Virus record (IMG/VR): IMGVR_UViG_3300029499_000043
From: a virus
Lineage: Duplodnaviria > Heunggongvirae > Uroviricota > Caudoviricetes
Reading direction: 5' to 3' (one strand)
Length of the DNA stretch: 4,982 nt
Shown here: in pieces, positions 2,900-4,982 of the stretch
How the letters are laid out: each line of letters begins with the position of its first letter
Position numbering within the stretch: the stretch's first letter is position 1
The notes under the pieces: generated by a model
The model's input: the letters and a program-made list of their open reading frames with translations, nothing else
What the model was told of the DNA's origin: nothing
Database searches by the model: none
Program-made: the position numbers and the translations under genes

Positions 2900-3055
2900 A
2901 TGGATACTATCGATCTTGGCAACAACGAATCTCTGGTGTACGGCGTGTTTCCAAACCAGGACGGCACGTTCACCGCAATGACGTATACCAAAAGCAAAAC
3001 GTTTAAAACCGAAAATGGTGCCCGTCGCTGGCTGGAAAGAAACTCAGGTGAGTGA
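2900..3055 (+). CDS. ydfA: YdfA/YdaF-family small prophage protein (DUF1391-like), 51 aa (MDTIDLGNNESLVYGVFPNQDGTFTAMTYTKSKTFKTENGARRWLERNSGE).
   Basis: Internal ATG of track ORF 2744..3055. Shine-Dalgarno GAGG at 2891..2894, 5 nt upstream. The 51-aa size and sequence match my recollection of the YdfA/YdaF family. First gene downstream of the repressor on the early-left side. Confidence 0.8.
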   Translation: MDTIDLGNNESLVYGVFPNQDGTFTAMTYTKSKTFKTENGARRWLERNSGE

Positions 3056-3056
3056 T

Positions 3057-3632
3057 ATGGATTTCGACACAATCATGGAAAAGGCTTACGAAGAATACTT
3101 CGAAGGCCTTGCCGAAGGCGAAGAAGCTCTCAGCTTCAGTGAGTTTAAACAGGCACTCAGAATAAGAATGCGCTCTCACAATGACGCGGAGCACAAATAT
3201 GAGAAGCAAAATCAGACCGCAGAAAATTTTGTTCTGGAACCCGGAGAAACGCTTTTCAAAATTCCCGTTACGTGCCCCATTTGCGGTTTTACATCAGAAG
3301 AACTTGACGACTCCTGTAACAATCAGGAAACAACCAAGTATGTCGAAGATGATACCGAGTGCGCACGAAGAACGATTATATCCACGAGTCCAAACTCCAG
3401 GACCAATAAATCTCACTTTGAGAGGGTGATTAATCCACTCCCCCAAACCAATAAAAAAGATGCCGGAGGACAAAAAAACCAATGGAACAACGGGATATCT
3501 GTCAAAAAAAGACGTTCCATTAAAGACAAACAACGCAGCGCCAACAACTGTAAGCGCTTTATACCAGTAATCAATTTTCATGTTCTTAAGCGGATTTATT
3601 GGTGGTTGCGACATTGCTTAATGAATCCTTAA
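3057..3632 (+). CDS. ydfB/ydfC-like early gene(s). One uninterrupted frame from ATG 3057 (MDFDTIMEKAYEEYFEGLAEGEEAL...) with a second in-frame ATG at 3168 (MRSHNDAEHKYEKQ...). The true 3' extent is uncertain: the C-terminal 80 codons are K/N/R-rich low complexity over A-tracts.
   Basis: Shine-Dalgarno AGGTG 6 nt upstream of ATG 3057. The start is 1 nt after the ydfA stop, which suggests coupling. In K-12 this region is annotated as two small genes (ydfB, ydfC), as far as I recall. Here no stop occurs until 3630..3632. The tail contains poly-A runs at 3453..3458, 3472..3478 and 3504..3510. Confidence 0.5.
   Translation: MDFDTIMEKAYEEYFEGLAEGEEALSFSEFKQALRIRMRSHNDAEHKYEKQNQTAENFVLEPGETLFKIPVTCPICGFTSEELDDSCNNQETTKYVEDDTECARRTIISTSPNSRTNKSHFERVINPLPQTNKKDAGGQKNQWNNGISVKKRRSIKDKQRSANNCKRFIPVINFHVLKRIYWWLRHCLMNP
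3294..3614 (-). CDS. Candidate small membrane protein, 106 aa, with three predicted hydrophobic helices, antisense to the 3' part of the ydfB/C-like frame. Possibly a superinfection-exclusion or holin-like protein; possibly an artefact.
   Basis: ATG at 3614..3612 with AAGGA about 11 nt upstream on the minus strand. Hydrophobic segments are ALTVVGAALFVF, VVPLVFLSSGIFFIGLGEWI and ALGIIFDILGCFLIVTGVV. Caveat: an antisense reading of lysine/asparagine-rich A-tracts automatically yields Phe/Leu-rich hydrophobic stretches. Confidence 0.3.
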   Translation of the reverse strand: MSQPPINPLKNMKIDYWYKALTVVGAALFVFNGTSFFDRYPVVPLVFLSSGIFFIGLGEWINHPLKVRFIGPGVWTRGYNRSSCALGIIFDILGCFLIVTGVVKFF

Positions 3633-3891
3633 AACTGTGGTGATTTTAAGGATACCACCTCGCCTGACGTGGTTAAAAGCAGGCACACAACACGAAAGCG
3701 CACGGCGAAGTTCGTCTCACTGTACGGTGTCGTCAAATTTAATTCGACCGTGCGCTTCCGGTTGTGGCAACCCGCGAAATGGCGCGGCGGTAAGTATGGC
3801 GGGGTTATTCCTTCCCCGTTGAGGACACCGAGTTGTCAGGTTGACCATACGCTTAAGCGACAACCCCGCTGCAACGCCCTCTGTTATCAAT

Positions 3892-3949
3892 TTTCTGGTG
3901 ACGTTTGGCGGTATCAGTTTTACTCCGTGACTGCTCTGCCGCCGTTTTT
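3892..3949 (+). ncRNA. dicF: DicF small regulatory RNA (Hfq-dependent antisense inhibitor of ftsZ translation), including its intrinsic terminator: stem GGCGG 3907..3911 with CCGCC 3939..3943, then T-tract 3945..3949.
   Basis: The sequence TTTCTGGTGACGTTTGGCGGTATCAGTTTTACTCCGTGACTGCTCTGCCGCC followed by TTTTT matches the roughly 53-nt DicF RNA as I recall it, almost base for base. It lies in an ORF-free stretch immediately upstream of dicB, as in Qin. Confidence 0.85.
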
Positions 3950-4118
3950 AAAGTGAATTTTGTGATGCGGTGAATGCGGCTAAGCGCACGCGGAACAGTT
4001 AAAACCAAAAACAGTGTTATGGGTGGATTCTCTGTATCCGGCGTTAATTGTTAACTGGTTAACGTCACCTGGAGGCACCAGGCACTGCATCACAAAATTC
4101 ATTGTTGAGGACGCGATA

Positions 4119-4307
4119 ATGAAAACGTTATTACCAAACGTTAATACGTCTGAAGGTTGTTTTGAAATTGGTGTCACTATCAGTAACCCTGTATTTACTG
4201 AAGATGCCATTAACAAGAGAAAACAAGAACGGGAGCTATTAAATAAAATATGCATTGTTTCAATGCTGGCTCGTTTACGTCTGATGCCAAAAGGATGTGC
4301 ACAATGA
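4119..4307 (+). CDS. dicB: DicB cell-division inhibitor (acts with MinC on FtsZ), 62 aa (MKTLLPNVNTSEGCFEIGVTISNPVFTEDAINKRKQERELLNKICIVSMLARLRLMPKGCAQ).
   Basis: Strong Shine-Dalgarno GAGGA at 4107..4111, 7 nt upstream of ATG 4119. The 62-aa length and sequence match my recollection of DicB. Located downstream of DicF. Confidence 0.9.
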   Translation: MKTLLPNVNTSEGCFEIGVTISNPVFTEDAINKRKQERELLNKICIVSMLARLRLMPKGCAQ

Positions 4308-4588: not shown

Positions 4589-4982
4589 ATGAGTAAAGTC
4601 TTTATTTGCGCCGCTATTCCTGACGAACTGGCAACAAGGGAAGAAGGCGCTGTGGCTGTAGCCACAGCCATTGAAGCTGGCGACGAACGCCGTGCTCGAG
4701 CAAAATTTCACTGGCAATTCCTGGAACATTATCCGGCTGCTCAGGACTGCGCTTATAAATTTATTGTCTGCGAGGATAAACCTGGCATACCCCGCCCTGC
4801 CCTCGATTCATGGGATGCTGAATATATGCAGGAAAACCGCTGGGATGAGGAGTCTGCTTCTTTTGTCCCGGTTGAGACTGAATCCGATCCGATGAACGTC
4901 ACTTTTGACAAGCTGGCCCCTGAAGTACAGAACGCTGTCATGGTTAAGTTCGACACATGTGAAAACATCACCGTTGATATGG
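4589..4982 (+). CDS. ydfE: YdfE-like acidic protein, 3'-partial: 131 codons to the window edge with no stop (MSKVFICAAIPDELATREEGAVAVATAIEAGDERRARAKFHWQFLEHY...). Possibly the N-terminal region of a RecE-type exonuclease-family protein.
   Basis: ATG 4589 with Shine-Dalgarno GAGG at 4575..4578 (about 10 nt upstream). The open frame runs to 4981 without a stop, so it is absent from the supplied ORF track. Position after ydfD as in Qin. Identity from recollection only. Confidence 0.7.
   Translation, partial: MSKVFICAAIPDELATREEGAVAVATAIEAGDERRARAKFHWQFLEHYPAAQDCAYKFIVCEDKPGIPRPALDSWDAEYMQENRWDEESASFVPVETESDPMNVTFDKLAPEVQNAVMVKFDTCENITVDM

Follow-up and report, generated by a model that had tools for sequence, protein, structure and literature searches.

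The 4,982-nt stretch of the Caudoviricetes virus record IMGVR_UViG_3300029499_000043 (hereafter the window) contains, immediately upstream of the small RNA (sRNA) DicF, an RNA domain (3761-3875) for which an autonomous four-helix-junction fold and membership of a new RNA family are strongly supported. The interval under study (3633-3891, + strand) belongs to an ordered cassette in which an RNase III hairpin (here called H0), the probably pseudoknotted domain, a terminator and a second RNase III helix follow one another. DicF is among the oldest known bacterial small RNAs, and to our knowledge studies of it have dealt with the last 53 nt only and have called the long upstream stretch a plain untranslated region. 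Neither the fold nor the function of the domain is described in the literature available, and Rfam has no entry for it. A sequence-only reading of the interval had suspected a structured, uncharacterised RNA in this leader, and a covariation-supported domain without an Rfam match is what was found. The parts of the domain, as defined by RNAalifold and a covariance model (R1), are:

3761-3875, + strand: four-helix-junction domain (module), which makes up the body of 190-nt DicF
3761-3768 with 3868-3875, + strand: closing helix P1, 5' strand GUUGUGGC and 3' strand GCUGCAAC
3772-3787, + strand: helix P2, hairpin CCGCG-AAAUGG-CGCGG (3772-3776 with 3783-3787), 98.7% paired, one-sided changes only
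3789-3829, + strand: helix P3a, GGU (3789-3791) with ACC (3827-3829), enclosing P3
3800-3804 with 3814-3818, + strand: variable hairpin P3, CGGGG with CCCCG, three pairs changed on both sides
3794-3799 with 3845-3850, + strand: probable pseudoknot, GUAUGG with CCAUAC of the P4 loop, 100% paired
3830-3867, + strand: helix P4 (3830-3841 with 3851-3867), GAGUUGUCA-GGU, loop UGACCAUAC, GCU-UAAG-CGACAAC-CCC

In an alignment of 62 distinct sequences, which was fitted to model R1 and thereby favours the structure, 97.3% of cells are paired, compared with 34-57% in slid controls, and 11 pairs have changed on both sides, compared with 3.2 in shuffled alignments (none of 500 shuffles reached the observed number). 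Five of these pairs are in P4, where for example GUUGUC/GACAAC is replaced by GGUAACC/GGUUACC in Izhakiella; the window itself has two A-C mismatches in this helix (A3831, A3838/C3859). The P3 stem exists as CGGGG/CCCCG, CUGGG/CCCAG, CCAGG/CCUG and GAGG/CCUC. The pseudoknot, which probably joins the P4 loop to an internal loop, shows covariation at one pair (U-A to C-G, in the lineage of phage P1) and contains two U-G pairs; its helix was left out of the alignment model. Hardly any variation is seen in the junction and loop bases (GGCGGUAAG.AUGGC, CACCG, CAGG.UG.CCAU.CGC) between E. coli and the copies in Erwinia, Serratia and phage P1. Model R1 scores the window domain at 134.9 bits and that of E. 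coli K-12 at 143.6 bits.

A small CCGCG/CGCGG hairpin that had been noticed at 3769..3785 does exist and is helix P2 of the domain, though its strands lie at 3772-3776 and 3783-3787. No Rfam 15 model matched 3680-3895 at E <= 10 with permissive filters, and identities such as C4/IsrK, tRNA-like RNAs, ribozymes and riboswitches were rejected for want of a covariance-model match.

The upstream hairpin and its pairing partners

The other parts of the cassette in the window, including a downstream repeat of the left arm of H0, are:

3686-3766, + strand: H0, an interrupted hairpin of ~21 bp and RNase III substrate, from folding and covariation
3696-3705, + strand: left arm of the perfect 10-bp core of H0, AAGCGCACGG
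3748-3757, + strand: right arm of the core, CCGTGCGCTT, containing the probable RNase III 5' end (~3755-3757)
3876-3891, + strand: AU-rich single-stranded linker, GCCCUCUGUUAUCAAU, with the RNase E cut (5' end of 53-nt DicF) at its 3' edge, as in K-12 (PMC10448788)
3892-3949, + strand: DicF sRNA and intrinsic terminator (RF00039 at 3893-3944, 72.5 bits; stem 3907-3943, then a U tract)
3945-4111, + strand: helix B, a 28-bp stem (3945-3972 with 4083-4111) around an insert of ~110 nt, -65.5 kcal/mol, z -5.8
3982-3990, + strand: downstream copy of the left arm, AAGCGCACG, an exact match

The perfect 10-bp inverted repeat at the core of H0 had been recognised in the sequence-only reading, with the right arm placed correctly and the left arm off by one (3697-3706). 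A repeat search lengthens the core to 13 nt with one mismatch (3693-3705 with 3748-3760), and the whole hairpin folds at -34.2 kcal/mol (z = -4.4), with none of 200 shuffled sequences as stable. The lower stem consists of CACAAC-A-CG-A-AAGCGCACGG-CGAA on the 5' side and UUCG-A-CCGUGCGCUU-C-CG-GUUGUG on the 3' side, a helix of 6+2+10+4 bp with one-nucleotide bulges, which has the approximately two turns of double helix of an RNase III site. The top of the hairpin, about 33-40 nt, is variable, and occurs in at least five unrelated versions among E. coli-type homologues in which the arms are almost invariant.

Both sides have changed in 8 of 18 pairs of H0, and 97.7% of cells are paired among 39 distinct arm pairs, a count that is biased by the choice of divergent left arms for maximal pairing within a 225-nt search window. 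Across sets of 39-52 distinct arm pairs, pairing amounts to 97.7-98.8%, compared with 27-46% when the partner strand is slid, and the covariation score of 0.352 (0.174 in shuffled alignments) was reached by none of 500 shuffles; one spacer N was placed by hand in this alignment to keep the register. Compensation is seen in the DicF-type lineage, in relatives that lack the domain, and in the cdtI, Citrobacter, Erwinia/Izhakiella, Trabulsiella and Serratia lineages, the arms of the last five differing in sequence and pairing in the same register (for example CACAACGA-U-GAGAGCAUUG with CAGUGCUCUC-U-UCGUUGUG). In a further lineage, found through the relatives that lack the domain, AGGCGCAUUU and GAGUGCGCCU replace AAGCGCACGG and CCGUGCGCUU. 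The folding and covariation check that had been proposed for the 10-bp helix thus turned up compensatory changes, so that a refutation on the ground of no covariation fails.

The 190-nt DicF species of K-12 is lost in an rnc mutant, and its 5' end has been mapped by primer extension (Ragunathan et al. 2023, PMC10448788, section 6, Fig. S1), results that confirm Faubladier et al. 1990; the 53-nt DicF is produced by RNase E (PMC10448788). Excision of DicF by both enzymes, as stated in the sequence-only reading, agrees with these data. Counted back 190 nt from the DicF 3' end (3944), with the K-12 homologue aligned, the 5' end falls at ~3755-3757, within the right arm of H0, and the cut would be ~11 nt from the base of H0 only if GUUGUG is paired. 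There is strong evidence that RNase III generates the 5' end of the 190-nt DicF RNA by cutting H0, and the suggestion that the repeat is a processing determinant holds. The RNase III site of the K-12 dicB operon is the same element, homologous in sequence (K-12-type copies are ~89% identical to window 3675-3891), and since the K-12 RNase III-dependent 5' end falls in the right arm, this part of the cassette is already known biology. The published work gives the cut position only (PMC10448788); the present analysis adds the helix, its compensation across lineages and its overlap with P1.

The overlap consists of GUUGUG (3761-3766), which is common to the base of H0 (with CACAAC, 3686-3691) and to helix P1 (with CUGCAAC, 3869-3875). 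In constrained folding the full H0 gives -72.7 kcal/mol and the structure with P1 formed gives -69.5 kcal/mol (pseudoknot not counted), a prediction of almost equal energies for the two states. The left base of H0 varies as C/U and A/G, and the 3' strand of P1 as UG, CA or UA, by transitions only, with pairing kept. Both helices are plausible at the shared bases and neither is proven there. RNase III cleavage of H0 would remove the competing strand and free P1 irreversibly. The idea of mutually exclusive pairing in this leader therefore survives at GUUGUG, a different place from the one proposed, where the downstream copy was to act as a switch.

That copy, reported at 3982-3990, is present at exactly those coordinates. 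It was thought to compete with the left arm for the right arm, sequestering or releasing DicF, and this is highly improbable. Three exact copies of the 9-mer (both strands counted) occur within 300 nt, and at up to one mismatch there are five matches in the window against 1.36 expected, a number reached by 1 of 200 shuffles, making pure chance an unlikely cause of the recurrence; the core of the copy, GCGCACGC, is invariant in all lineages. In the lineages where the right arm has become GAGTGCGCCT, however, the left arm has become AGGCGCATTT, keeping 10 of 10 pairs, and the downstream copy is still AAGCGCACG, with only six contiguous pairs left; because the left arm compensated the change and the copy did not, the pairing is unsupported. 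The copy moreover sits in a separate domain closed by the 28-bp helix B, neither the predicted minimum free energy (MFE) structure nor the centroid structure pairs it with the right arm, and RNase III cleavage together with a transcription delay of 230 nt would favour the local hairpin. An ancient tandem duplication of ~286 nt, conceivable from the two equally spaced repeats, was rejected (the local flank alignment was reached by 77 of 300 shuffles, and no diagonal was enriched).

Two variants of H0 may be recorded. In Erwinia/Serratia/Trabulsiella/Izhakiella-type loci (L180, L187, L054), a string resembling a tRNA T-arm and acceptor, GGCAGGTTCAATTCCTGCCACC, is found in an enlarged H0 top, ~60-130 nt 5' of the domain; ARAGORN called no tRNA on it. 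In the copies L061 and L164 (Shigella flexneri), a deletion fuses CACAAC of the left base of H0 to GCGAAATGG of P2, so that both H0 and the P1 5' strand are lost; the Shigella copy has a decayed terminator as well.

Distribution and genomic setting of the domain

In a BLAST search of phage records, the segment 3761-3883 recurs alone in phage cdtI, Stx2c phages, 2H10 and Salmonella F1055, and also in P1, P7, D6 and SJ46. The copy in phage P1 is annotated as a 'dicF-like region' and lies just past the C1-controlled ban promoter, in the ban leader; no literature on this region was found. Pattern scans of IMG/VR and of GTDB species genomes provided further copies, in prophages of E. albertii, E. 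ruysiae, Shigella, Citrobacter, Trabulsiella, Erwinia tracheiphila, Izhakiella and Serratia symbiotica, which include six enterobacterial genera other than Escherichia; by the BLAST search and the scans, the domain was found only in enterobacterial phages and prophages. At a coverage of at least 80% it is present in 4289 of 5426 complete E. coli genomes (~79%), at 8793 places and up to eight times per genome, and among the matches listed none of these copies is annotated. Conservation and distribution of the domain both exceed those of the DicF seed.

Copies of E. coli type or phage P1 type, almost identical to those of E. coli, are present in contigs of metagenome-assembled genomes (MAGs) assigned to Veillonella parvula, Collinsella and Bacillota, most likely through binning contamination rather than because these are true hosts. 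The DicA-type Actinobacillus phage vB_Apl-pPE4, with a recorded Pasteurellaceae host, carries, at 3600-3770 of its locus, a domain of 85 bits with a degenerate P1 5' strand, after which the P1 3' strand, linker, terminator and start of helix B are duplicated in tandem.

The order of the cassette is H0, domain, linker, terminator hairpin (DicF here), helix B and first downstream gene, with H0 directly abutting the domain in all lambdoid lineages. The domain is always 3' of a repressor-controlled early promoter, at a distance of ~25 nt in phage P1 (Pban, a C1 operator promoter), ~215 nt in vB_Apl-pPE4, ~285 nt in cdtI (a TTGACA/CATAAT promoter, 11/12 match, beside cI) and ~930 nt in the window, where ydfA and a 191-aa coding sequence (CDS) intervene; the Erwinia and Stx2c loci are arranged likewise. 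An intrinsic terminator follows 3-48 nt past the domain (3-25 nt in most) in nearly all of 77 distinct downstream sequences. It is formed by ~14 different hairpins, most with a common GGCGG/CCGCC base, and the clear exception is a decayed Shigella copy. Phage P1 has the compact layout of promoter, ~25 nt, domain, 11 nt and terminator. No other consensus intrinsic terminator was detected on the + strand from dicBp to DicF or further along the left operon of the isolated phage HannyBb, by a scanner whose loop-size limit makes it skip the DicF terminator too.

The DicF terminator hairpin folds at -15.1 kcal/mol, and helix B, which takes in the U tract of the terminator and the dicB Shine-Dalgarno sequence, corresponds to the site at which RNase III is reported to make the 3' end of a 72-nt DicF (PMC5069750). 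The same order of terminator, long helix and first gene is found in cdtI (helix 2668-2685 with 2746-2763 of the cdtI locus). In K-12 the 190-nt RNA is stable and accumulates in stationary phase, and terminated DicF species are abundant, the read-through transcript being seen only with RNase E inactivated (PMC10448788); the RNase E cut in the linker that releases 53-nt DicF is at least strongly supported. Although DicF (RF00039) is adjacent, in the same transcript and in the same 190-nt precursor, its Rfam model spans 3893-3944 only and leaves the domain outside, and the domain occurs without the DicF seed in phage P1, cdtI and Erwinia-type loci.

Several features past the domain were observed in passing. 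A match to STnc100 at 3942-4151 is below threshold (34.5 bits; gathering score 47), and phage P1 has a partial STnc100-like match upstream of tciA (3842-3961 of the P1 locus). Erwinia, Serratia, Trabulsiella and Izhakiella variants have a terminator hairpin of 60-70 nt past the domain (e.g. locus L180, ~4670-4745; also L161, L175, L187 and L054), the loop of which contains a Shine-Dalgarno sequence and start (AGGAG, 6-9 nt, ATG/GTG TTC TAC CG); the frame would cross the 3' strand and the U tract.

Some loci, in 86 stretches of IMG/VR and 76-163 complete E. coli genomes, carry an allele lacking the domain. In it the whole 115-nt domain is replaced by GGUUGUG-AAUA-ACAAC, in effect P1 closed by a short loop (e.g. 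locus L194, 4040-4110), and all loci of this kind have the single common junction GGTTGTG-AATA-ACAAC. Because H0, helix B and a terminator hairpin like that of DicF are all kept in these relatives, the domain is probably not needed for production of a DicF-type sRNA. A tblastn search based on two N queries detected an N-like gene in 0 of 100 loci with the domain, compared with 22 of 57 loci lacking the domain, in which it lies ~1.5 kb upstream; many of the loci lacking the domain are DicA/YdfA types without N. A proposal that the domain substitutes for N is weakly supported and was not adopted, given the many N-less loci without the domain, the single junction and the use of two N queries.

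Possible functions of the domain

The explanation that fits best, and is put forward tentatively, is that a conserved RNA cassette heads a repressor-controlled early-left operon and includes a cis-acting functional domain. We infer that the domain is functional in its own right and is not a mere spacer. With somewhat less assurance, judging from sequence, it may act in cis on the elongation complex or on the adjacent terminator. Cis action is favoured because the domain is invariably between an early promoter and the first terminator, because no N-like protein was detected, because unpaired bases are conserved in sequence, and because the put RNAs of phages HK022 and HK639 are placed in parallel. 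On good evidence, transcription from dicBp passes ydfA and the 191-aa CDS, H0 forms and is cut by RNase III, giving the 5' end of the 190-nt RNA, and the domain folds after this cleavage. The RNA ends at the terminator, or RNase III cuts helix B in read-through transcripts, and an RNase E cut in the AU-rich linker (3876-3891) yields 53-nt DicF. In the favoured mechanism the domain would set termination, with production of a DicF-type sRNA, against read-through into dicB, exo, xis and int, its folding perhaps gated by RNase III activity. In HannyBb, in which no N-like gene was detected, exo, xis and int are all past the DicF terminator. If the domain controls read-through, this would explain how N-less lambdoid phages express genes past the DicF terminator, and would tie host RNase III activity to prophage gene expression.

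Several observations weigh against this explanation. The domain is dispensable for the other parts of the cassette, many loci without it are also N-less, and the anti-correlation with N may reflect one deletion allele spread by recombination, and so few evolutionary events. A strong constitutive antiterminator it is not, because K-12, with an intact domain, makes abundant terminated DicF; inspection of aligned variants found no conserved antiterminator pairing between domain and terminator, and model R1 gave no sign of homology to put RNAs at the annotated putL-like site of HK639 or in HK022 nt 22000-40751. The thermodynamic MFE structure of the cleaved 190-nt RNA differs from the covariation fold. 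The shared GUUGUG is almost invariant, so that each of the helices competing for it is backed there by one-sided transitions only, and the bias noted above for the 39 arm pairs of H0 belongs here as well.

The putL and putR RNAs of HK022 and the putL-like RNA of HK639 are structured phage RNAs with an early repressor-controlled promoter on one side and the first terminators on the other, in an operon without N, a position like that of the domain. The putL-like RNA of HK639 is annotated as 126 nt, close in size to the domain, and the likeness is one of position and size. On reading, its sequence is dissimilar, and put RNAs consist of two stem-loops in a V shape (PMC9378689), whereas the domain has a four-helix junction and a pseudoknot. 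Homology was therefore rejected, on the lack of an R1 match and the other architecture. It is conceivable, though less likely than not, that the domain represents a third, structurally unrelated class of phage RNA acting on elongation or termination, put-like or attenuator-like and gated by RNase III through H0; the amount of early-left transcription that gets past the DicF-type terminator, to the genes for cell-division inhibition, recombination and excision, would then depend on it, both in the ban operon of phage P1 and in the majority of E. coli prophages of this type. The nutL/N-leader RNase III site of phage lambda occupies the same place in the PL leader, and, as is established for lambda, a long RNase III helix stands immediately 5' of the ribosome-binding site of the first gene. 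The lambda nut site works with N and boxB, whereas the domain loci have no N gene or boxB. The TGCTCT... string that precedes the domain was considered as boxA of a nut site and rejected, since it is the paired 3' strand of H0, with compensatory changes, and is not single-stranded.

Nearly as likely as cis action, and likewise uncertain, is a stable trans-acting RNA, processed to 140-190 nt, in which the domain would bind a host or phage macromolecule and the DicF seed would be a lineage-specific addition in the linker; its 5' end would be set by RNase III (by the promoter in phage P1) and its 3' end by the terminator or by RNase III at helix B. Both ends are defined, two conserved RNase III-type helices flank the unit, the layout in phage P1 is compact and gene-like, the stable 190-nt species builds up in stationary phase, and the linker and upper hairpin evolve fast, like sRNA seeds, around a conserved domain. 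If the domain does act in trans, it would be part of an unrecognised and very common prophage RNA of E. coli. Such an RNA has no known partner, however, no neighbouring gene is conserved across the contexts, and why the examined N-bearing phages are without the domain would be left unexplained.

Two further alternatives assign the domain a local role. As a passive scaffold for folding, stability or processing, it might guide RNase E to the DicF 5' end or protect the precursor; it is directly 5' of the RNase E site, and upstream stem-loops are known to guide RNase E in the processing of 3' UTR-derived sRNAs (general knowledge, cited in the review PMC9438474). This is improbable, as relatives without the domain keep H0, the DicF-like hairpin-terminator and helix B, the copies in phage P1, cdtI and Erwinia-type loci have the domain without the DicF seed, and near-invariant unpaired junction and loop bases with a pseudoknot are more than a spacer requires. 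Less likely still is a riboswitch for a metabolite or ion, of a new kind, with the domain as aptamer and the next terminator as expression platform. Riboswitch aptamers with a four-way junction, such as SAM-I, combine four helices and a closing P1 with a pseudoknot between two arms, and a terminator comes after them; the domain likewise is an aptamer-like fold followed by an intrinsic terminator, with a closing P1, a four-way junction and pseudoknot, conserved junction bases and a terminator 3-48 nt away. The likeness is of architecture only: there is no homology, no overlapping expression platform by inspection and no known ligand, and the domain was found in enterobacterial phages and prophages only. 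CCGCY at the 3' end of the domain could pair with GGCGG at the base of the terminator. In the cdtI type, however, a G to A change in the 3' strand of P1 is compensated inside P1 and, by inspection, uncompensated in the terminator, and no conserved alternative pairing over P1 and the terminator was apparent.

Coding content and neighbouring features

The window comprises the early-left (dicB) operon and immunity region of a lambdoid phage of the Qin/HannyBb type, and matches a prophage of E. coli 118UI at 100% identity and HannyBb at 98.8%. Its remaining features are:

2300-2707, + strand: DicA-like repressor
2795-2823, + strand: dicBp-like promoter, TTGACG/TAAATT
2900-3055, + strand: ydfA (DUF1391)
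3057-3632, + strand: 191-aa CDS, annotated by PGAP (phrog_35040, function unknown)
4119-4307, + strand: dicB, followed by ydfD

Exonuclease, xis and int genes come after ydfD in 118UI and HannyBb, and the only Pfam matches in the operon are DUF1391, DicB and DUF1482. The interval 3633-3891 had been described as free of open reading frames (ORFs). Mechanical ORFs of 61 and 95 aa on the + strand and of 57 and 35 aa on the - strand do overlap it, but it bears no coding signature: homologues of the domain are 120-133 nt long, mostly 128 versus 129, with length variants of 1-5 nt, variable alignment columns are evenly spread over the codon positions (30/30/25), almost no + frame is free of stops across the homologues, and among the matches listed (4348 matching E. 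coli records) no PGAP-annotated CDS underlies the interval. A small protein was ruled out by the length variants, the even variation and the lack of an annotated CDS among these matches.

Neither the window nor six related loci gave a tRNA or tmRNA call with ARAGORN. A small perfect hairpin, ACACCG-CA-CGGTGT (2836-2849), is located at the start of the dicBp transcript, before ydfA. Antisense within the 191-aa CDS there is a 106-aa hydrophobic ORF (3294-3614, - strand) without a Pfam or PHROG match, and K-12 has two short genes, ydfB and ydfC, in place of this CDS. Without the remaining region, the block GGATACCACCTCGCCTGACGTGGTTAAAAGCAGGCACACAAC (3649-3702) reappears in Cronobacter phage phiES15, Klebsiella phage Kp4866-6 and mEp460 (90-94% identity), and K-12-type copies have a different hairpin, CCCTGAAAAGTCAGGG, at its position.

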